The notes: a model not told the origin generated them from the letters alone. A DNA stretch of 64,000 bases from an uncultured Gammaproteobacteria bacterium (GCA_902553145.1 CACDKD010000003.1:2168-66167), one strand, 5' to 3'; counted from the stretch's first letter, positions 1 through 10,927 are shown. Made by a program: numbers and translations.

Positions 1-1
1 C

Positions 2-724
2 ATGGGCGGCAGAGTCAATAACTCGAAAGACGTGGCTCAATTTATCATCAATGCAAGTCATGGAATACCAAAGATCAGTTTTGAGGAACTCTCACAAAAA
101 GGGATTGTTAAAGTTGAAGGCGTTGAGAACACCATGTGGGAAAAAGACGAATCCCCCTATCACAATGAAATCGTAAAAAGTGTGAGGAAAAAATTGCCTT
201 ACGAAACCTTTACGGGAAGGCAACAATTTTACATCGATCATGAGTGGTTCATCGAATTTGGTGAAACTTTGCCGACTTTTAAGGAGCCGCTTAAAATTGA
301 TGAATTTCCATTGAGGATGATGATGGGACATGCAAGGCATGGAATCCATAGTACTTGGAGGGATGATTCCTTTCTACTCAGCTTGCAACGAGGTGAGCCA
401 GATATTTATGTGAATCCTGACGATGCCATAAATAGAGGCGTTGAAGACGGAGACATGATCCGGATTTACAATACAGCAGGCGAATTTTTTGCGATGGCAC
501 ATGTGAGCTCTGGTATCCAGCCTGGAATGTTGTTCATGTATCATGGTTGGGACCCAAAGATGTTTAAGGGTGGAAAGAACTTCAGTGAAGTCATTCCAAC
601 AGGCGGATTAATCAAGCCAACTTCAATGGCCGGAGATTATGGTCATCTTGGCTATCAGCCTTTGGCTTTTGCTCCAAACCAGACGTATAAGGATTTTACC
701 TGTGATTTTGAGAAATCGGCGTAA
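2..724 (+). CDS. Molybdopterin (bis-MGD) oxidoreductase catalytic alpha subunit, C-terminal fragment; type II DMSO reductase family (NarG/DdhA/EbdA-like). 5' end lies outside the window
   Basis: The ORF is open at the window edge. The pattern GRQQFYIDHEWF...MMGHARHGIHSTWRD...GEPDIYVNPDDA...MIRIYN resembles the C-terminal domain of NarG-type subunits. Chaperone and FeS subunit genes follow immediately. Confidence 0.75.
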   Translation: MGGRVNNSKDVAQFIINASHGIPKISFEELSQKGIVKVEGVENTMWEKDESPYHNEIVKSVRKKLPYETFTGRQQFYIDHEWFIEFGETLPTFKEPLKIDEFPLRMMMGHARHGIHSTWRDDSFLLSLQRGEPDIYVNPDDAINRGVEDGDMIRIYNTAGEFFAMAHVSSGIQPGMLFMYHGWDPKMFKGGKNFSEVIPTGGLIKPTSMAGDYGHLGYQPLAFAPNQTYKDFTCDFEKSA

Positions 725-730
725 CTCAAT

Positions 731-1375
731 ATGCAAAGAACAACTATTGAATCACTAAGGCAAGCAGAGATTACCGCATTGCCGCGTGCCACTATATACT
801 CGCTCTTTTCTCAGCTTCTAAGCTCTCCCCATGAATTGAAACCGCTGGGCTTATCTTCAGAGATATCTTATGAGGGTCTCCCGTATGATTTCAATGTTCG
901 AGAAATGATCGATTCATATCTTAATGATGATCCTGAAGCACTAAGGCTCAAATACAGCGGTCTATTTGAGGTTGGGGATGATGGCCCCCCTGTGCCCATA
1001 AGGGAGGATTTATTTTTAGCTCAACCAGCCAAATTAAGAGAAGACCTCGTAAGGTTTTATGATTATTTTGGTTATCAATTGGACGAAGAATTTCAGTGGC
1101 AAATGGATCATTTGTCCATCGAGTTGGAGTTCATGCATTTTTTGATTATTGGCGAGCTTCAATCGGATAACGACAAGCTCTCATTTCAATTGGGCCAGGT
1201 TGATTTCCTAGAAAAGCATCTTATAAATTGGACGCCGCTGTTATCAAAAAAGTTATCAACTCTAGATGAGAGTGATATCTACACCAAAATTGTTATAGAA
1301 TTAGAAGACTTCCTTTTAAAAGACCAACATTGGCAAAAGGAAACCATTTCACATAAAGATGTAGCTGGGGGTTAA
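731..1375 (+). CDS. TorD/NarJ-family redox-enzyme maturation chaperone (delta subunit-like)
   Basis: 214 aa, starting 6 nt after the alpha gene. Family-type motifs are YSGLFEVG, LVRFYDYFGY and QMDHLSIELEFMHFL (the DH..EL.F signature). Confidence 0.7.
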   Translation: MQRTTIESLRQAEITALPRATIYSLFSQLLSSPHELKPLGLSSEISYEGLPYDFNVREMIDSYLNDDPEALRLKYSGLFEVGDDGPPVPIREDLFLAQPAKLREDLVRFYDYFGYQLDEEFQWQMDHLSIELEFMHFLIIGELQSDNDKLSFQLGQVDFLEKHLINWTPLLSKKLSTLDESDIYTKIVIELEDFLLKDQHWQKETISHKDVAGG

Positions 1376-1377
1376 GT

Positions 1378-2367
1378 ATGGGTCAGGTTGCAATGGTGAT
1401 AGATCTAAATAAGTGCATCGGTTGTCAAACATGTACAACTGCTTGCAAATCTCTGTGGACAGACGAACCTGGCCAAGAATACATGTTATGGAATAATGTT
1501 GAGACCAAGCCTGGTCCTGGCTATCCAAGATACTGGGAAGAGGGAGGCGGAGGCTTCGACGAACAAGGAAATCTCCAACGCGATGGCTTAATGCCAAAAA
1601 AGGAAGACCATGGAGAGGAAGTTCCACTCAATCACGATGAAGTCTACTTCAAAGGAGTTGAGGTAAGGCTTCAGCAAGAAAAGCCAATGACCAAAGGCGC
1701 CAACTGGGATGAGGATACCAGCTCCGGGGATTATCCAAATAATTATCATTTTTATTTACCGAGAATGTGCAACCATTGCACTAAGCCCGCTTGTTTAGAA
1801 GCATGTCCAGTGAGAGCTATCTATAAAAGAGAAGAAGATGGCGTAGTGCTTATTGATGAAGATAAATGCCAGGGAATCAGAGAGTGTAATAAAGCATGTC
1901 CTTACGATAAGATTTATTTTAATTACATCACGGGTAAGTCCCAAAAATGTATATTCTGCTTTCCAAGACTGGAAGAAGGTGTTGCGCCAGCATGCGCAAG
2001 GCAGTGCCCAGGAAGATTAAGGTTTGTTGGGTTTCTGGAAGATGAGGATGGTCCAATCAATGAATTGGTTTATCAGTGGAAGGTGGCTTTACCGCTGCAT
2101 CCAGAATATGGAACCGACCCAAATGTATTCTATGTTCCACCGATGTTGCCACCTAATTTTGACGAGGATGGCGATTTCTCTGATGATCCAAGGGTTCCGA
2201 CAGAATACCTAAGAAGTCTGTTTGGAGATGCTGTGGATGAGGCGCTGATAACCCTTCAGTTCGAGATGGAGAAAAAACAGGAAGGAAAGGAATCCAGATT
2301 GATGGATCTTCTGATTGCCAAAGAATGGAAGTCCTTATTCAGTATCCCTGACGTCAAAATTTATTAA
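1378..2367 (+). CDS. Iron-sulfur beta subunit of type II DMSO-reductase-family enzyme (DdhB/SerB/EbdB-like)
   Basis: 329 aa with four Cys clusters: CIGCQTCTTAC, CNHCTKPACLEACP, CQGIRECNKACP and CIFCFPR...ACARQCP. The size fits the roughly 330-aa beta class rather than the roughly 510-aa NarH. Confidence 0.85.
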   Translation: MGQVAMVIDLNKCIGCQTCTTACKSLWTDEPGQEYMLWNNVETKPGPGYPRYWEEGGGGFDEQGNLQRDGLMPKKEDHGEEVPLNHDEVYFKGVEVRLQQEKPMTKGANWDEDTSSGDYPNNYHFYLPRMCNHCTKPACLEACPVRAIYKREEDGVVLIDEDKCQGIRECNKACPYDKIYFNYITGKSQKCIFCFPRLEEGVAPACARQCPGRLRFVGFLEDEDGPINELVYQWKVALPLHPEYGTDPNVFYVPPMLPPNFDEDGDFSDDPRVPTEYLRSLFGDAVDEALITLQFEMEKKQEGKESRLMDLLIAKEWKSLFSIPDVKIY

Positions 2368-2390: not shown

Positions 2391-4343
2391 ATGCAGTTAT
2401 CAAACAGTCGCATTTTTTTAATCATGACATCACTGGTTCTCTCATCCGTGATGGCAAGCCTTGATTCCAGTTTCACCCCAATTGCGATACCTGACATGAT
2501 TGATAAGCTTGACTCAAGCACAAGTGAAATTGTTTGGGTCGCACTTGGATATTTAATCGCAGCCAGTGGCCCGATGCTTTTGGCCGCAAAAATGGCCGAT
2601 GGAATTGGGCACGCTCGTTTTTTTCAAATGGGCACGTTGATATACAGTATTGCAATGATTGCATGCGCCTGGGCACCAGACGCTAACACACTTATTATTA
2701 TTCGATTTGTTCAAGGTTTTGGCATGGCCTTGTTTCTGCCAACAACATTTGCAATTGCAACTGCTATGTATGGTCCTAAAAGGAGAGGCAGTGCGCTTGG
2801 TATTCTTCAGGCAGCAAATGCGGTTGGTTTTGTGATGGGCCCTATTTTTGCAGGGTGGTTACTCGATGCATATGATTGGACAGCAATTTTCTGGTCTAGA
2901 ATTCCATTCGCAATACTGGCCATTTTATTGGCTTTTTTAGCATTGGGCTTTAAGCAGCCATTTCAATTTTCTGAACGTCAAAAATCTTACGACTATTCTG
3001 GAGCAGTATTCCTAACATTAGCTTTGTATGGAATTCTATATGGATGCAATAAGCTCCCTGTGGAAGACAATCATCTAGAACCAATGGTTTGGATTATATT
3101 TCTTTCAGGGTTTCTGTTTTTTGCCTTATTCATTCAACAAGAAAAAAGACATCCAGATCCTCTGATTGATTTATCTCTCTTTTCAAAAAACAATGAATTC
3201 ACAAAAGCTTCGATTGCATTCACATCGGTTTTTGCCAGTTTCCCAGTCTATCTCTTCATTTTGCCAATCATCATGATCAATGGGCTAGAGCTTACTGCAT
3301 GGGATGCAGGTTTGGCATTGGGTGCAGCGGCACTTGCCACGTTATTAATTAGCCCTGTGGCCGGTAACTTATCTGATCGCATTGGACCTGAAAAACTTTG
3401 CATGAGTGGAGCACTCTTAACAGGGTTTGGTTACATGCTATTGTTTTTAGTCAATGCCGATTCGGGCGCATTTGAAATCATCCCAGCCATGATATTTATT
3501 GGCGGTGGAACAGGTTTATTCTTCTCTCCAAACAATAACTTGATGTTATCAAGCGCACCACCCGAGAGAGCTGGTATGGTCTCAGGACTATTTGGTGTCT
3601 ATAGGCAATCAGGTTACGCCTTAGGATTTGCAATAACAGCCAGTTTATTTACAGCAATTCAGAATTGGTTCGATGTCAACTGGGCATACGATTCACTCAG
3701 TGCGACCACTGTTGAGTCAGCGGACACATTGACTGTAATTTACAATCAAGGCAGTCAATGGTCTCCAGAGGTATTGGTCTTTATTTTACATATAGGAATT
3801 CTGCTTTGCTCCAGCATATTGATTATTACTTTTGTAAACTCAATCCCTAGAGTCAAGTTAATGCTTTCAAAGCAAATTACTACCGCACTGATGGCAGTCA
3901 TTGTTTCAATCGTCTCAATGGCTTCCTATAGTTTGAATGCGCCTGGTGTCATTGGTGGCATTCAATTAAAAGCAATTGATAAGCCAGTTGTTTCTGTTCA
4001 AGCCTTTGGAATGGCCTCAAGACAATATGAAATCGAAGATCGAAGTGACTTCATGGTCATTAATATTATGAGTAGTGACTCAATTTCCAATGAGAAATAT
4101 AATGCAAGATGTGGATTCTGTCATGGAGCAGATCTAAACGGCATTGAAGGATTAGGTATTACATTGAAGAACTCAGACTTCCTTAAAAACATGACAACAA
4201 ACGAAATCATAGCTTTTCTTAAAGTGGGAAGGATGCCGAATGCTGATGATTCAATATCAGGTGGGGTGATGCCCGGATTCAGTTGGCTTGAGGAATCTGA
4301 GCTAGAAGAAATTGCTGAATTTATAAAGGTTAACAATGAATGA
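2391..4343 (+). CDS. MFS transporter (14-TM DHA2/EmrB-like core) plus an extra 15th TM helix and a C-terminal mono-heme c-type cytochrome domain
   Basis: 650 aa. I counted 15 hydrophobic segments by eye. The tail carries a single CGFCH heme-binding motif (nt 4110-4124) and a downstream GGVMPGF as candidate Met ligand. The gene starts 23 nt after the beta subunit gene. Confidence 0.7.
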   Translation: MQLSNSRIFLIMTSLVLSSVMASLDSSFTPIAIPDMIDKLDSSTSEIVWVALGYLIAASGPMLLAAKMADGIGHARFFQMGTLIYSIAMIACAWAPDANTLIIIRFVQGFGMALFLPTTFAIATAMYGPKRRGSALGILQAANAVGFVMGPIFAGWLLDAYDWTAIFWSRIPFAILAILLAFLALGFKQPFQFSERQKSYDYSGAVFLTLALYGILYGCNKLPVEDNHLEPMVWIIFLSGFLFFALFIQQEKRHPDPLIDLSLFSKNNEFTKASIAFTSVFASFPVYLFILPIIMINGLELTAWDAGLALGAAALATLLISPVAGNLSDRIGPEKLCMSGALLTGFGYMLLFLVNADSGAFEIIPAMIFIGGGTGLFFSPNNNLMLSSAPPERAGMVSGLFGVYRQSGYALGFAITASLFTAIQNWFDVNWAYDSLSATTVESADTLTVIYNQGSQWSPEVLVFILHIGILLCSSILIITFVNSIPRVKLMLSKQITTALMAVIVSIVSMASYSLNAPGVIGGIQLKAIDKPVVSVQAFGMASRQYEIEDRSDFMVINIMSSDSISNEKYNARCGFCHGADLNGIEGLGITLKNSDFLKNMTTNEIIAFLKVGRMPNADDSISGGVMPGFSWLEESELEEIAEFIKVNNE

Positions 4344-5652
4344 GCTCATAAATACAAAGCAGCAAGACTCCATGGCGGCTTGGTATGCAGTTTTTGTTTT
4401 GTTACTGGCATATATCCTCTCGTTTGTGGACAGAATTATTCTCAGTCTATTGGTGACTCCTATAAAAGAAGATCTTGGAACCACAGATGCACAAATGGGA
4501 TTATTGATGGGGTTTGCATTTGCGATTTTTTATACCATTGCAGGGATACCAATTGCAAAATACTCGGACGTTAAGAGTAGAAAAATGATTATAGCTATTG
4601 GCATCTTTTTGTGGAGCATCATGACCGCTGTCTGCGGTTTAGCTAGAAGTTTTTTCCAACTTTTTCTTGCAAGAGTGGGAGTTGGGGTAGGAGAGGCTGC
4701 GCTTACGCCTGCAGCTTATTCAATGATTTCTGATTACTTCAGCGAAGAAAAGCTCGGTCGAGCGATGGCAGTATATAAATCTGGCGCGATGTTTGGTGGA
4801 GGTTTGGCTTTTATTATCGGAGGAGCAGTTGTTGGGTATGTGGTCAATTCCGACTCCATTATTCTTCCTTTGTTAGGGGAAATGAAACCGTGGCAAATGG
4901 CCTTCATCATTGTGGGACTCCCTGGAGTCTTAATTGGCCTTTTGATGCTGACGGTCAAGGAACCCAGTAGGACAGGAGTAGAAGATACTCTCGATAAAAA
5001 AGTTTCTATTTCTGATGCCATAAAATACATGCAAAAACGCTGGAGGATTTATCTGTTTATTTTCTTAGGCTTTGCTTTTATGGCCGCTCCAATCAGTTCA
5101 GCTTTGACTTGGATACCAGTTTATCTACAAAGAATACATGAGATGAGCATTCCAGAAAGTGGGCGAACACTCGGTATAATAATTTTCTTCTTATCAAGCA
5201 GTGGGGTTCTAGTCAGCGGTTGGCTGATCGATACTTTTAAGAAAAGAGGCTATCAGGATGGTTATTTTAAAGTTGCTCTCATGATCTGTTTGGTGACCAT
5301 ACCAATTGTCTATTATTCAATGAATGATCAAAGTCTGGATAAAACTCTCTGGTGGCTGCATCTATTTGTGTTCGTTGCCAGTATGCCACTGGTAATTTCT
5401 GCTACTGTGTTACAAATTGTTACGCCCAATCAATTGAGGGCACAGGTATCCGCTGTATACATGCTTTTCTTGAATCTGATCACAGCACTTGTTGTCACCA
5501 CAGGCATTGGTTTTATTACTGATTTTTGGTTTAAAGATGAAATGGCTCTAGGCCAATCAATCATGGCGGCTAACCTTTTGTCGATGTCTTTTGCTTTTAT
5601 ATGTCTATATATTGCAATGTCATACTTCAATAAAGAATTCACAAACGCCTAA
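4336..5652 (+). CDS. MFS transporter (12-TM type), paralog of 28328..29677
   Basis: 438 aa and multi-TM. It overlaps the upstream gene by 8 nt. The N-terminal region AWYAV..LAY..SF.DR..LSL aligns with the 28328..29677 product. Confidence 0.8.
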   Translation: MNELINTKQQDSMAAWYAVFVLLLAYILSFVDRIILSLLVTPIKEDLGTTDAQMGLLMGFAFAIFYTIAGIPIAKYSDVKSRKMIIAIGIFLWSIMTAVCGLARSFFQLFLARVGVGVGEAALTPAAYSMISDYFSEEKLGRAMAVYKSGAMFGGGLAFIIGGAVVGYVVNSDSIILPLLGEMKPWQMAFIIVGLPGVLIGLLMLTVKEPSRTGVEDTLDKKVSISDAIKYMQKRWRIYLFIFLGFAFMAAPISSALTWIPVYLQRIHEMSIPESGRTLGIIIFFLSSSGVLVSGWLIDTFKKRGYQDGYFKVALMICLVTIPIVYYSMNDQSLDKTLWWLHLFVFVASMPLVISATVLQIVTPNQLRAQVSAVYMLFLNLITALVVTTGIGFITDFWFKDEMALGQSIMAANLLSMSFAFICLYIAMSYFNKEFTNA

Positions 5653-5727
5653 AAAGTCAGTTAATATTAAAGGTCGTCCTGTAAAAATATAACAGGGTTA
5701 AAAGACAATGTTTTAAGGGAGTTTTTT

Positions 5728-6360
5728 ATGGTTGATCAGTCAACAGAAGATAATTACGCTGGCGTTTGGGACAGCGGTTTGGGGTTTGGTGAAAAGTCAG
5801 CATTAATCGTTATTGATTTGCTTCAAGGTTACACAACTGAAGGTTCAGCACTCTATGCGCCTGGTGTTGTTGAGTGCGTAAAGGAAATGCCAGAAGTACT
5901 TGCATTGGCACGAGAAAAGAATGTGCCTGTCATTCATACGAGAGTCCTATATACGAAACCCAATTATGAAGATGGAGGTGTTTGGGTTAAGAAAGCACCG
6001 GTCCTTCTTGATCTGGTTGAAGGTCATCCTTACGCAGATTTTTGTGAAGGTGTTGAACCGCAAGAAGGCGAGGTTGTCATTATTAAGCAATACGCGAGTG
6101 CGTTCTTTGGAACCTCATTGGTGGCCACATTGAATGGACTTGGCGTGGATACGCTAATCATTACCGGATGCACAACATCTGGATGTATTCGAGCCACAGC
6201 TGTAGATACCGTTCAACACGGTTTCAGGCCAATTTGTGTAAGAGAGTGTATCGGCGATAGAGCCGAAGGACCGCATGAGGCAAATCTCTTTGACATCAAT
6301 GCCAAATATGGCGATGTCATCAGTAAAGACCATGCGATGGATTATTTAAATAATTTGTAA
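5728..6360 (+). CDS. Isochorismatase-family cysteine amidohydrolase (N-carbamoylsarcosine amidase/RutB-like)
   Basis: 210 aa. Motifs are ALIVIDLLQGY, IIKQYASAFFGT and IITGCTTSGCIRATAVD, a layout consistent with the Asp-Lys-Cys triad. Confidence 0.8.
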   Translation: MVDQSTEDNYAGVWDSGLGFGEKSALIVIDLLQGYTTEGSALYAPGVVECVKEMPEVLALAREKNVPVIHTRVLYTKPNYEDGGVWVKKAPVLLDLVEGHPYADFCEGVEPQEGEVVIIKQYASAFFGTSLVATLNGLGVDTLIITGCTTSGCIRATAVDTVQHGFRPICVRECIGDRAEGPHEANLFDINAKYGDVISKDHAMDYLNNL

Positions 6361-6379
6361 AAATTTAGAGGAAAGAATT

Positions 6380-7303
6380 ATGAGTGAGTTAACACAATCA
6401 AGGCACTACGATTATGTGCCAATTATTGACCGAGAACCATTTAAATTACCAGATGGTGCAAGGGTCGCAGTTTTACCGTACATAAACATTGAGCATTTTC
6501 CTGCAGCAATTGCCGGAACCTCATTGATTCCTGGGACTGCAGCTTTCTCTCCTGATCCATTGAATTATGGATGGAGGGATTATGGCAATAGGGTAGGCTT
6601 ATGGAGAATGATGGAATTGATGGATAAGCTTGGCATGAGAGGCACTGTTTGCCTTAATGCAGAGATCATTAGGGAATACCCAAGAATCATTGAAGAATCT
6701 CTGGCAAGAGATTGGGCATTCATCGGACATGGGATCAATAATGCGCCTGCTAATTTCATTGGCAATGCACCTGATGGAGAAGGAGGTCATACACCTCTTC
6801 CAGAAGAGAAAGAAAGAGAAATCATCAGCACTGTTTGTCAGACTATGGAGGAAGCATTGGGTAAGAAAACAAAAGGTTGGTTAAGCCCATTTCTAACTCA
6901 TACGGATAATACTCCAAAAATCCTTGAGGAGAATGGCGTTGAGTATCTTTGTGACTATACTGCGGATGATCATCCATTTAAGTTCAATACTCCAAAAAAT
7001 AATCTCATCGCAGTTCCTTACACTGTTGAGCTTAATGATATTCCTGCATTTTTGGGTCATTCAGGCGTAGGTGTATCATCAGAAGCCTTTGGAGACATGA
7101 TTGTTGATCAATTTGATGTCCTTTATGAGGAAGGCGCAACGAATGCAAGGTGTATGCCTATTTGCTTGCATACATTTCATGTTGGTCAGCCAAATAAATT
7201 TAAGCATCTAAAAAGAGCTTTTGAATATATTGCCGGCCATGACGACGTTATCCTTTCAACAGGCGATGACATCAATGATTGGTATCGAGAGCAATACATG
7301 TAA
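6380..7303 (+). CDS. Polysaccharide deacetylase-fold protein (PuuE allantoinase-like subgroup)
   Basis: 307 aa. The YGNRVG.WR...L, FIGHGINNA and LHTFHVGQP pattern resembles the PuuE-like deacetylase family. The assignment is by eye only. Confidence 0.55.
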   Translation: MSELTQSRHYDYVPIIDREPFKLPDGARVAVLPYINIEHFPAAIAGTSLIPGTAAFSPDPLNYGWRDYGNRVGLWRMMELMDKLGMRGTVCLNAEIIREYPRIIEESLARDWAFIGHGINNAPANFIGNAPDGEGGHTPLPEEKEREIISTVCQTMEEALGKKTKGWLSPFLTHTDNTPKILEENGVEYLCDYTADDHPFKFNTPKNNLIAVPYTVELNDIPAFLGHSGVGVSSEAFGDMIVDQFDVLYEEGATNARCMPICLHTFHVGQPNKFKHLKRAFEYIAGHDDVILSTGDDINDWYREQYM

Positions 7304-7367
7304 ACCATCGGCTATTTAGCCAAGCTTGGTTATAATAATGGGCAGTAAATACTGCCCATTATTGTTT

Positions 7368-8630
7368 ATGAGAATGAATTTTAAAGTTATTAAAACACTG
7401 CTGATGCTTTTTGCAATTGTGCATGCAGATTTATTTGCATCAAAGATACCTGAACCAGGACCAAGTGTGATGAGACTCCCAGTTTTGATTGAAAATGAAA
7501 AATCAGAGCTCAGAGTCGCAGAAGGATTTGAGATTAAAACACTTGTTGACGGATTGGATTCTCCAAGGTGGCCAGTGGTATTGCCCAATGGGAATATACT
7601 GATTTCAGGATCAAAAACAGAAGCATTGCCAAATATGCCAGAGGAAACCATTCGACTCCTCACCAGCATGAATATATTTGGGAAGTCCCCCAACACTATT
7701 ATTGAAATTGACATGAATCAAAACCCTCCTGAGGTGAGAAATCTGATCCAAGGGCTGAATCAACCGTTTGGAATGTTGTTTAAAAATCAAAGCCTTTTCG
7801 TTGCAAACACTGATTCCATAGTCAAATATCCATTCAAGGACTTTATGCTCTCAGGTGCCGCTGAGAAAATTATCGACCTTCCATTCGGTCCACCGAATAA
7901 TCATTGGACGAGGAATATTATTCTGAATGAGCGAGGGGATAAGATTTTGATAGCCGTTGGATCCGGGACCAATGTAAATGCAGAAGGCGCTGATGAAAAA
8001 GACAGGGCAGCAGTCTGGGAAATCAATCTTGATGGGAGTGAAAAAAGAATATATGCATCCGGCCTCAGAAACCCTGTCGGGTTGGATTTCTACACAGAAA
8101 ACGGGAGTTTGTGGACCACTGTCAATGAACGAGATGGCATTGGTGAGTTCACACCGCCTGATTATCTGACCGAAGTGAAAGAAGGCGCTTTTTATGGATG
8201 GCCATATGTTTATTTTAAAGACTATGCTGACCCTACACAGATTGAGCTCAACCCAGAAAAGGTAAAACGGGCAATGCGGACCTCATTAATGCCAGACTTA
8301 CCACTTGATGCTCACTCAGTTCCATTGGGGCTTTTGTTTCATAGCGGAAAAAATATCAGCTCCAAATATAAAAACGGCGCTTTTGTGGTTCGTCGTGGCG
8401 GAGTATCCACATCAAAGCTCACAGGTTACGATGTTCTCTTTATCCCATTCATGAATGGGAAACCAACGGGAACCATTCAAACCTTTGTTTCAGGATTTAT
8501 TGCCAGTGAGGAAAGAGGCGAAATTCACGGAAGGCCTGTTGGGATAGCTGAAGGAGTTAATGGCGAAATATTCATTACTGATGATGTTGGAGGAAGAGTG
8601 TTGGTTGTAACTTCAAAACTAGAGAATTAA
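7368..8630 (+). CDS. PQQ-dependent sugar (glucose/sorbosone) dehydrogenase-like beta-propeller, secreted
   Basis: I started the gene at the internal ATG (7368), which gives a signal peptide MRMNFKVIKTLLMLFAIVHADLFA. Family-like motifs are GLRNPVGLDF, WTTVNERDG and FYGWPY. Confidence 0.7.
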   Translation: MRMNFKVIKTLLMLFAIVHADLFASKIPEPGPSVMRLPVLIENEKSELRVAEGFEIKTLVDGLDSPRWPVVLPNGNILISGSKTEALPNMPEETIRLLTSMNIFGKSPNTIIEIDMNQNPPEVRNLIQGLNQPFGMLFKNQSLFVANTDSIVKYPFKDFMLSGAAEKIIDLPFGPPNNHWTRNIILNERGDKILIAVGSGTNVNAEGADEKDRAAVWEINLDGSEKRIYASGLRNPVGLDFYTENGSLWTTVNERDGIGEFTPPDYLTEVKEGAFYGWPYVYFKDYADPTQIELNPEKVKRAMRTSLMPDLPLDAHSVPLGLLFHSGKNISSKYKNGAFVVRRGGVSTSKLTGYDVLFIPFMNGKPTGTIQTFVSGFIASEERGEIHGRPVGIAEGVNGEIFITDDVGGRVLVVTSKLEN

Positions 8631-9928: not shown

Positions 9929-10927
9929 ATGACATTAACGCAACTCAAATATCTCATATCTGTTGTTGATAATAAGCTGAACATTAGTAAGGCTGCTGAA
10001 TTTTCAAACACCAGTCAGCCTGGAATTAGCAAGCAGGTTAAGTTGCTCGAAGATGAGCTTGGCGCCTATCTTTTTATCAGGAAGGGTAAAAAAATTGAAT
10101 CACTCACTCCTCTTGGCGAAAGGGTCACAGCCTATGCAAGGAAGATCCTTCAGGATGTTGAAAATATTAAAGTGATTGGCAGCCAGATATCAAAAGTTGA
10201 CGAGGGCGTCATGACCGTTGCTGCAACATCTGCTCAAGCAAGATACGTGCTGCCCGAAGTTATTAAGGTATTTAAAGAAGATTATCCAAAGATTAAATTT
10301 GAACTAAAACTTGGGTCTTCTGAACAAATTATAGAAATGGTAAAAAACAACGAAGTTGATTTTGCGATTGCAACTGACCTCACTGATCTCATGGATGAGC
10401 TCGTTCTTTTGCCTGCGTATCATTGGTTTAACGCAATCATTGCGCCTTTGGATCATCCTCTCAAGAAGCATATGAAAAATCTAACCATTAAAAGAATTGC
10501 CAAGGAACCTCTCGTCACGTATGCATTCAGTGTTGGTCCCGATACCTCATTCACCGAAACCTTTAAGAAAAATAAACTTGAGCCAAATATCGTTTTTGCA
10601 GCCAGAGACGCCGACATTATTAAGACATATGTCAAGATGGGAATGGGAGTTGGGGTTATATCTGGAATGGCTTATGAGTGTGATGACAATGAAGAATTTA
10701 TCGCTATCAGTGGCGAGAATATTTTTCCAAAATGCACCACTTATTTTGGATTTCGACGTGGCATGGTCCTCAGTCGTTACGCGATGAGTTTCATCAACTT
10801 ATTCTCTGAGCATCTCACTCCAAGCGTGGTGAATAATGCCGCATCTACAAAGACTCAAGTGGAGGTTGATAACTTATTTAAAAAGATTAAGCTTCCTGTA
10901 AAAGGCGGGTGTGATCAAATTAAATAA
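9929..10927 (+). CDS. LysR-family transcriptional regulator (CysB/Cbl-like)
   Basis: N-terminal HTH LNISKAAEFSNTSQPGISKQVKLLEDELG, followed by a substrate-binding domain of typical LysR length. Confidence 0.85.
   Translation: MTLTQLKYLISVVDNKLNISKAAEFSNTSQPGISKQVKLLEDELGAYLFIRKGKKIESLTPLGERVTAYARKILQDVENIKVIGSQISKVDEGVMTVAATSAQARYVLPEVIKVFKEDYPKIKFELKLGSSEQIIEMVKNNEVDFAIATDLTDLMDELVLLPAYHWFNAIIAPLDHPLKKHMKNLTIKRIAKEPLVTYAFSVGPDTSFTETFKKNKLEPNIVFAARDADIIKTYVKMGMGVGVISGMAYECDDNEEFIAISGENIFPKCTTYFGFRRGMVLSRYAMSFINLFSEHLTPSVVNNAASTKTQVEVDNLFKKIKLPVKGGCDQIK

Follow-up and report, generated by a model that had tools for sequence, protein, structure and literature searches.

Type II molybdoenzymes of the dimethyl sulfoxide (DMSO) reductase family include nitrate, chlorate, perchlorate and selenate reductases, dimethyl sulfide (DMS) and ethylbenzene dehydrogenases and nitrite oxidoreductase, and they are described as an alpha-beta pair with a heme-b gamma subunit. 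In a 64,000-nt stretch of DNA from an uncultured Gammaproteobacteria bacterium (GCA_902553145.1, CACDKD010000003.1:2168-66167; hereafter the window), the genes of such an enzyme are followed instead by a single open reading frame (ORF) in which a major facilitator superfamily (MFS) transporter runs into a c-type cytochrome. What is a transporter that carries a cytochrome doing beside a molybdoenzyme? We find that this MFS::cytochrome c fusion is the last gene of a widely conserved cassette, and we propose that it probably serves the enzyme as a membrane-bound, gamma-equivalent electron-transfer subunit.

A transporter and a cytochrome in one polypeptide

The fusion ORF (2391..4343, + strand) starts with ATG and encodes 650 aa. 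Between the beta stop at 2367 and this ATG lie 23 nt, which include a weak AAGG some 9 nt ahead of the start codon. At its other end the gene overlaps the next MFS gene by 8 nt, the stop of the one and the ATG of the other both falling in ATGAATGA. Both junctions lie where an earlier sequence-only reading of this DNA had placed them. An AlphaFold2 (AF2) model built on 32 homologues (predicted local distance difference test, pLDDT, 81.7; predicted template modelling score, pTM, 0.75) has 15 transmembrane (TM) helices, and the gene is divided as listed here.

2391..4343, + strand: MFS::cytochrome c fusion gene, 650 aa plus stop (ORF, Pfam, homologues, AF2)
2391..3836, + strand: DHA2-type MFS core, residues 1-482, TM1-TM14 (TIGR00711, Foldseek, motifs B and C)
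3870..3938, + strand: predicted 15th TM helix, residues 494-516 (AF2 helix 492-514)
3939..4082, + strand: flexible linker, residues 517-564 (pLDDT < 50 for residues 528-564)
nt 4005-4022, + strand: FG-x3-R motif in the linker (F539, G540, R544), conserved
4083..4340, + strand: predicted class I c-type cytochrome domain, residues 565-650 (family-tail profile against CcoP)
nt 4110-4124, + strand: CGFCH heme motif, residues 574-578
nt 4269-4274, + strand: candidate axial Met627-Pro628, within GGVMPGF

By fold, model score and motifs, the N-terminal half of the fusion is a DHA2 MFS protein. Pfam MFS_1 spans residues 15-412 (E 1e-53), and the DHA2 subfamily model TIGR00711 efflux_EmrB is narrowly passed, at 233 bits against a cutoff of 230.2. 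The top PDB folds returned by Foldseek for the model are the 14-TM DHA2 pumps QacA (7y58), EmrB (8zal) and EfpA, with E values of 1e-15 to 1e-13 and TM-scores, normalised to the target, of 0.76-0.82. MFS motif B (TM4) is defined as R-x2-QG and motif C (TM5), the antiporter motif, as G-x3-GP-x2-GG; R105, Q108, G109 and G111 of the first and G146, G150, P151, A154 and G155 of the second are invariant in the 32 sequences. Motif A, in the TM2-3 loop, is partly kept, with G73 invariant and an acidic residue (D or E). MFS_1, TIGR00711, the AF2 model and the fold matches agree with one another on the 14-segment DHA2/EmrB-type core of a 650-aa product that had been counted by eye.

Conservation is uneven along the protein. 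Over TM1-14, 31% of positions are invariant (93 positions, across phyla), and invariant positions make up 24% of the periplasmic loops (DAYDW, LPVEDNH and WSPE) versus 11% of the cytoplasmic loops. This distribution suggests a conserved periplasmic interface on the MFS loops, and the strongest constraint appears to fall on the transporter core together with its periplasmic face.

The core is followed by the 15th hydrophobic segment that the sequence-only reading had reported, ITTALMAVIVSIVSMASY (residues 496-513), which the AF2 model renders as a helix over residues 492-514. It is preceded by a basic K/R-rich loop, NSIPRVKLMLS, has 0% invariant residues and looks like a plain connecting or anchor helix that returns the chain to the periplasm. 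The tail beyond it comprises 134 aa (residues 517-650), close to the 135 first estimated. Its linker of about 48 aa is disordered and 6% invariant, the invariant positions being only F539, G540 and R544; this FG..R motif is invariant in family alignment A1, present in most loci, and degenerate in the Marinimicrobia and Rhodospirillaceae lineages.

In the cytochrome c domain, 13% of positions are invariant. C574-x2-C577-H578 and M627-P628 are invariant in the family and align to their CcoP counterparts. A profile of 18 family tails matched CcoP in the PDB (6xkx, E 5e-18, with CxxCH and Met-Pro aligned), further CcoP chains (E 2e-15 to 4e-12) and, at E about 1e-5, the cytochrome domains of copper nitrite reductases, and the best NCBIfam match of the tail is TIGR00782 ccoP (E 2e-6). 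Homology at the level of the family thus points to a class I c-type cytochrome domain with a predicted heme. The tail profile showed no relationship to the ClrC gamma subunit in hhalign (E 0.65, probability 0.08%), and the fusion has no EB_dh or gamma-model match in Pfam or NCBIfam; judged by its sequence, it lies outside the gamma-subunit family (EB_dh/TIGR03477, heme b).

The helix boundaries of the model yield predicted cytoplasmic loops with 15 K+R in 99 residues and predicted periplasmic loops with 1 K+R and 15 D+E in 90 residues. Because of this K+R bias of the inside loops, and with 15 helices in all, we predict that the N-terminus is cytoplasmic and that the cytochrome tail lies in the periplasm, where heme c is attached. 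This is the topology that the odd number of helices had first suggested.

The fusion is a genuine and widespread gene

A search of 5.8 billion proteins recovered more than 100 full-length relatives of 635-682 aa, with identity down to 46%. Every one of the 115 homologues of more than 600 aa carries a single CxxCH, always in the same position, with a conserved MP after it, and the CGFCH and GGVMPGF picked out in the window belong to this pattern. Clusters at 90% identity hold up to hundreds of members (481, 516) drawn from Tara, JGI, ENA and NCBI, and relatives are present in surface-ocean single-cell genomes and Tara assemblies.

Could an assembly or annotation error have joined a transporter gene to a separate cytochrome gene? 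Interrupted ORFs do occur in a few loci (L052, L059, L063 and L139), and we found no other support for this explanation. Against it, almost every complete locus has the ORF without a break, about 120 independent loci in all, and an unbroken ORF of 640-680 aa recurs in more than 100 independent assemblies from different projects (single-cell genomes, metagenome-assembled genomes (MAGs) and metagenomes), down to 44% identity. A tail-profile search of a 1.8-billion-protein representative library, whose hit list was mostly multi-heme proteins, found no split transporter and cytochrome genes. Short tail-only hits in that library were rejected as stand-alone cytochromes, because all of them start inside MFS helices and are truncated ORFs. 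The comparative data refute the artefact, to which we give a negligible probability. On the points that the sequence-only reading had singled out beforehand as decisive, the search turned up no split genes, the tail is predicted not to be cytoplasmic, and it fits cytochrome c models at the family level.

In one interrupted locus, L139:953-6414 on a 7.6-kb metagenome contig, the gene for a 220-aa protein is followed by alpha and then by a frameshifted MFS::cytochrome c, and neither a chaperone nor a beta gene lies in between. Either the locus has been rearranged or is decaying, or the contig is misassembled. Two MAGs labelled 'Klebsiella pneumoniae' (L074, CAMCBU010000005.1) and 'Bacteroidetes bacterium' (L036, JADHTG010000045.1) fall in the Steroidobacteraceae-like and Marinimicrobia fusion clades, respectively, and their labels are probably binning or naming errors.

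The fusion closes a four-gene cassette

Three genes of the enzyme precede the fusion in the window.

1..724, + strand: C-terminal 240 aa of the molybdopterin alpha subunit, type II DMSO-reductase family (Pfam Molydop_binding, E 2e-17)
731..1375, + strand: delta, NarJ/TorD-type assembly chaperone (Pfam Nitrate_red_del, E 8e-15; conserved cassette position)
1378..2367, + strand: beta, four-cluster iron-sulfur (FeS) subunit, no signal peptide (TIGR03478, 511 bits; Pfam Fer4_11, E 2e-32)

The alpha gene is cut by the window start, so its reading frame (2..724) gives the last 240 aa and its N-terminus lies outside the window. Delta scores 95.5 bits with TIGR03482, under the cutoff of 152.3. The order is therefore alpha-delta-beta-fusion, with the fusion last, and not alpha-beta-delta-gamma. 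Alpha-delta-beta is kept through most of the enzyme clade, while the annotated clrABDC operon (L170) has alpha-beta-delta-gamma, which is also the order of the ser, ddh and nar operons.

A genome search anchored on the fusion gave 65 family loci, 47 of them with alpha-delta-beta immediately upstream. These 47 cassette loci belong to marine and Woeseia-like Gammaproteobacteria, Steroidobacteraceae, Alphaproteobacteria/Rhodospirillaceae, Marinimicrobia and Vicinamibacteria (Acidobacteria). We also searched metagenome contigs with an alignment of the alpha subunit, which removes the bias of the fusion-anchored search, and obtained 80 loci. At 15 of these the downstream sequence is too short to judge; the fusion lies directly after beta at 61 of the 65 that are informative (complete in 49, cut by the contig end in 10, and with a divergent or frameshifted tail in 2), and 4 are truly without it. 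Synteny of the fusion with alpha-delta-beta is near-obligate.

Pairwise distances of alpha and of the fusion are closely correlated (r = 0.97). The correlation between beta and the fusion is weak (r = 0.38), with crude ORF trimming the probable cause, and was not used. According to Pfam-annotated gene lists, the same cassette stands in unrelated surroundings in four lineages, and only the molybdenum (Mo)-cofactor genes MoeA, MobA and MobB recur near it; the cassette appears to be compact and horizontally mobile. Four Pfam-annotated loci (L001/L002, L003, L088 and L089) have no EB_dh/gamma gene within 10 kb and no other heme protein, the other cassette loci not having been scanned for gamma.

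The partner enzyme

The missing N-terminus of alpha can be read from full-length relatives of 913 aa that are 92-93% identical to the window's alpha. Their twin-arginine translocation (Tat) signal reads RRNFLK, their FS0 motif HGTNCAGTC and the motif with the Asp ligand GVGDLP. Among 39 full-length alpha relatives, the twin-arginine motif is found in 37, and HGTNCxGxC and GVGDLP in 38 each. Beta is presumably exported together with alpha.

The best PDB relative of alpha is PcrA (4ydd, E 1e-172; about 35% identity), and identity to ClrA and to haloarchaeal periplasmic NarG is 34-35%. Alpha reaches 889 bits against the TIGR03479 cutoff of 984.75, and the 511 bits of beta exceed the TIGR03478 (DMSO_red_II_bet) cutoff of 480.7. 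The aromatic gate of PcrA, which we take to consist of F164, Y165 and W461, is not conserved in alpha when aligned to 4ydd/5e7o: TFYDWYGD is replaced by EFFSGVGD and the W461 position by N/S. We rejected perchlorate reductase as the identity of the enzyme because these gate residues are not conserved, and we rejected a transfer of function from ClrA or periplasmic NarG because 34-35% identity is too low. Neighbouring genes, which differ between lineages, gave no pathway clue. The Tat, FS0 and Asp features, the identities of about 35%, the loss of the gate and the subfamily-model scores together mark the partner as a type II molybdoenzyme that is located in the periplasm and belongs to an uncharacterised clade of its own.

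A proposed role for the fusion

Our favoured interpretation, which we regard as probable, is that the fusion is the membrane-bound third, gamma-equivalent electron-transfer subunit of a Tat-exported alpha-beta enzyme and that its transporter half is still active. The 14-helix DHA2 core would sit in the inner membrane, helix 15 would bring the chain back to the periplasm, and the flexible linker of about 48 residues would bear a His/Met class I cytochrome c related to CcoP. The fused heme would exchange electrons, in either direction, with the FeS chain of beta, and would link the enzyme to the high-potential c-type part of the chain (bc1, soluble cytochrome c, cbb3 or aa3 oxidase). In addition, the fusion would tether alpha-beta at the membrane, docking on beta, perhaps via FG..R and the conserved periplasmic loops. 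The transporter half would then carry the enzyme's substrate or product across the membrane beside the active site, in antiport with H+.

Because the antiporter motif C is retained, the transporter is most likely an H+ antiporter or H+-coupled carrier for substrate or product. That it still works is suggested by the conserved motifs and by the nearly one third of membrane residues that are invariant across phyla, since one helix would be enough for an anchor. A cassette that is self-contained, in surroundings that vary, suggests that the enzyme acts on a small solute and that oxidising or reducing this solute is of use by itself. A more far-reaching form of the proposal, which we regard as possible but doubtful, is that the cassette is a transport-and-redox unit: a proton-coupled MFS would feed or clear a solute at the mouth of an enzyme held by the cytochrome c arm, all in one complex, with the redox state of the heme possibly controlling transport.

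Variant loci and alternative explanations

Several observations weigh against the proposal or against a narrow form of it. In class B, a monophyletic clade of Gammaproteobacteria with 16 loci, most of them in MAGs from soil and wastewater, the fusion stands without alpha-delta-beta within 10 kb. These fusions are intact, with CxxCH, MP and FG..R all kept, and evidently the fusion either need not lie beside the genes of the enzyme or can function in its absence. At two unfused loci of the same alpha-delta-beta clade (L085:1-4790 and L158:7001-12083; alpha 64-65% and beta 77% identical to the window's relatives), a free, signal-peptide-bearing gene for a diheme cytochrome c4-like protein lies next to beta on the opposite strand in place of the fusion, and by these variants alpha-beta does not strictly need the MFS. 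The second MFS gene downstream is found only in marine Gammaproteobacteria and Woeseia-like loci and stands outside the conserved cassette. DHA2 motifs alone are no proof of transport. The window's own tail falls under the Pfam gathering scores (Cytochrome_CBB3 PF13442, 21.6 against 27 bits; Cytochrom_C PF00034, 19.4 against 21.3), and many relatives carry precomputed PF13442 or PF00034 matches. Alpha gives no lead to the substrate either, at about 34-35% identity to periplasmic NarG and ClrA and with no PcrA gate. Docking, heme loading, electron direction, transport activity and substrate are all inferred.

The free cytochrome c of the unfused loci at the same time fits a c-type cytochrome as the enzyme's redox partner. 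At two further loci (L150:6983-11711 and L162:563-5397) beta comes directly after alpha, with no chaperone between, and is followed by a protein with an FGE-sulfatase (SUMF1-like) domain, not by the fusion. An FGE-sulfatase gene is also present in L085 (17095-17979).

In class B, a 220-aa, six-helix membrane protein (X220) is encoded immediately upstream of the fusion, often overlapping its start codon. Homologues occur elsewhere: L139 and L156 have one adjoining alpha, L050 has one near the cassette, and in L085 one precedes a different MFS 6 kb away.

L081:9345-10004; L083:9329-9991; 14 further class B loci: X220 family
L139:953-1618; L156:6476-6835; L050:12995-13810 (- strand); L085:10001-10672; L087:10001-10648: X220 homologues elsewhere

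X220 has no Pfam match at E up to 10 and no NCBIfam match at E up to 1, and its confident AF2 model (pLDDT 91.4, six helices) has no PDB fold match (best E 0.5). A NarI-like diheme b protein was considered unlikely, since X220 has just one invariant His. Its invariant residues include H12 and FAYWLGADLGV, and it is absent from the window. Members of the family are repeatedly encoded next to molybdoenzyme genes and directly upstream of MFS genes, and X220 may be a further accessory subunit of the system.

Class B gives its main support to an alternative in which the fusion is an autonomous redox-linked transporter. Its heme would reduce, oxidise or sense a solute or the periplasmic redox state, and the molybdoenzyme would be a frequent neighbour from the same pathway with a carrier of its own. 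An intact fusion in a two-gene operon with X220, and no alpha-delta-beta beside it, is what such a protein would look like; the recurrence of X220 homologues beside MFS genes and other molybdoenzymes, the MFS core as the most conserved part of the protein, and MamZ (below), an earlier case of an MFS joined to a redox domain, are in keeping with it. The phylogeny is not: in a neighbour-joining (NJ) tree class B is one nested, derived clade and the cassette arrangement is ancestral. Nor would an autonomous transporter account for a fusion that follows beta in nearly all alpha-anchored loci, for the lack of any other carrier or gamma in the four Pfam-annotated cassette loci, or for a free cytochrome c beside beta where the fusion is missing. 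We consider this alternative unlikely.

It is also conceivable that the MFS half is transport-dead and only a large anchor or docking platform for the cytochrome and alpha-beta. The invariant periplasmic loops could then be a docking surface and not a transport path, and the partial loss of motif A would follow the same line. One helix suffices for a cytochrome, however, as CcoP and TM15 itself show, and 14 helices with invariant motifs B and C, 93 invariant TM positions across phyla and a score above the DHA2 subfamily cutoff are hard to explain otherwise; we judge a dead transporter quite improbable. The sequence-only reading had taken the cytochrome for the tethered electron partner of the molybdoenzyme. 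That claim is strengthened by the synteny of the cassette, the Tat-exported alpha, the lack of gamma in the four loci and the free-cytochrome variants, and it is weakened by class B, where no enzyme is adjacent, and by the second MFS, which is not part of the cassette.

Relation to known systems

What is new in this cassette is the proposed third subunit of a type II molybdoenzyme. Full-text searches of open-access papers turned up neither an MFS::cytochrome c protein nor this cassette, which agrees with the impression from sequence that no such fusion had been characterised, and a review of the DMSO-reductase superfamily makes no mention of MFS or cytochrome c. MamZ alone is relevant, as a partial precedent. 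This protein of magnetotactic bacteria is an MFS with a C-terminal YedZ-like, heme-b ferric-reductase-like domain and, together with redox partners, has been suggested to make up an 'oxidoreductase and transport complex' (PMC3905215). It resembles the present protein in that an MFS is fused C-terminally to a heme redox module. However, MamZ combines a 12-TM MFS with a membrane-embedded heme-b domain, whereas here a 14-TM DHA2 core carries a soluble, tethered heme-c domain predicted to be periplasmic. Its partners are magnetochrome proteins and not a molybdoenzyme, and there is no sequence relationship beyond the MFS fold.

The enzyme itself has much in common with ClrABDC, SerABDC, DdhABDC, PcrABCD and EbdABCD: a Tat-exported alpha with an FS0 H-x3-C-x3-C motif and an Asp Mo ligand, a four-cluster beta passing TIGR03478, and a NarJ-type chaperone. 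Those enzymes are likewise periplasmic, connect to c-type cytochromes and have Mo-cofactor genes (mobB and others) nearby, and the characterised clr operon has a small c-type cytochrome gene after clrC. They differ in having a heme-b EB_dh gamma, where the cassette has a 15-TM MFS::cytochrome c whose tail is unrelated to ClrC, and in a gene order of alpha-beta-delta-gamma or alpha-beta-gamma-delta in contrast to alpha-delta-beta-X. The alpha subunit described here also stands apart, at 34-35% identity to ClrA/NarG, under the TIGR03479 cutoff and without the PcrA gate.

Tethered cytochromes are known from other settings. In CcoP of cbb3 oxidase and in cytochrome cy, a helix and a flexible linker hold a class I cytochrome c at the periplasmic face, and the tail of the fusion belongs to the same cytochrome family; those proteins use a single N-terminal anchor helix, whereas the fusion has a 14-TM transporter plus one helix, with a C-terminal cytochrome and a single heme. 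Cytochrome c-fused copper nitrite reductases (PDB 3ziy, 2zoo) also have a covalently tethered class I cytochrome c, which makes electron delivery independent of diffusion, but there the cytochrome is on the catalytic subunit and here it is on a transporter encoded beside the enzyme.

A pairing of transporter and molybdoenzyme is familiar from NarK and NarGHJI, in which an MFS nitrate/nitrite transporter is co-encoded with a Nar-type molybdoenzyme and matches substrate and product traffic to catalysis. NarK is a 12-TM protein of the NNP family, has no redox domain and serves a cytoplasm-facing enzyme. In the cassette, by contrast, the enzyme is predicted to be periplasmic and the MFS is DHA2-type with a heme domain.

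Genomic surroundings in the window

The window has a G+C content of 39.9%. Nearest to it are single-cell genome AG-447-O13, MAG UBA11654 and Tara MAGs, all from uncultured marine Gammaproteobacteria. The gene that overlaps the fusion stop is a second transporter.

4336..5652, + strand: second MFS, 12 TM, anion:cation-symporter-like (Pfam MFS_1, E 4e-46; TIGR00893, E 7e-35)

It belongs to a set of downstream genes at window positions 4336-8630 and 9929-10927 that also includes an isochorismatase-family hydrolase, a PuuE-like polysaccharide deacetylase, a GSDH-type dehydrogenase and a LysR regulator. This set is limited to the marine gammaproteobacterial clade. In the closest relatives, the isochorismatase-family and PuuE-like proteins are 93-98% identical to those of the window, the second MFS 83-91% and the chaperone 67-86%. 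The downstream set probably forms a catabolic operon of its own that is under tight constraint and may serve an N-heterocycle or ureide.

Implications

In a whole clade of type II enzymes gamma appears to be replaced by a transporter bearing a tethered cytochrome c, and the cassette is common in ocean metagenomes. Alpha shows the same distance, about 35% identity, to each of its characterised relatives, and for this reason a new and biogeochemically important substrate specificity is plausible. If the cassette is a transport-and-redox unit, it would represent an unrecognised way to wire a molybdoenzyme into aerobic respiratory chains. It would be used in the ocean by abundant, uncultured Gammaproteobacteria and Marinimicrobia, and in soil and wastewater by Proteobacteria and Acidobacteria. 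The substrate of the enzyme could then be a biogeochemically relevant oxyanion or sulfur compound to which no enzyme of these bacteria has so far been assigned; guesses include iodate, DMS/DMSO, nitrite, selenate and chlorate. The fusion offers a handle on how periplasmic redox enzymes may be coupled to membrane transport and to the aerobic chain.

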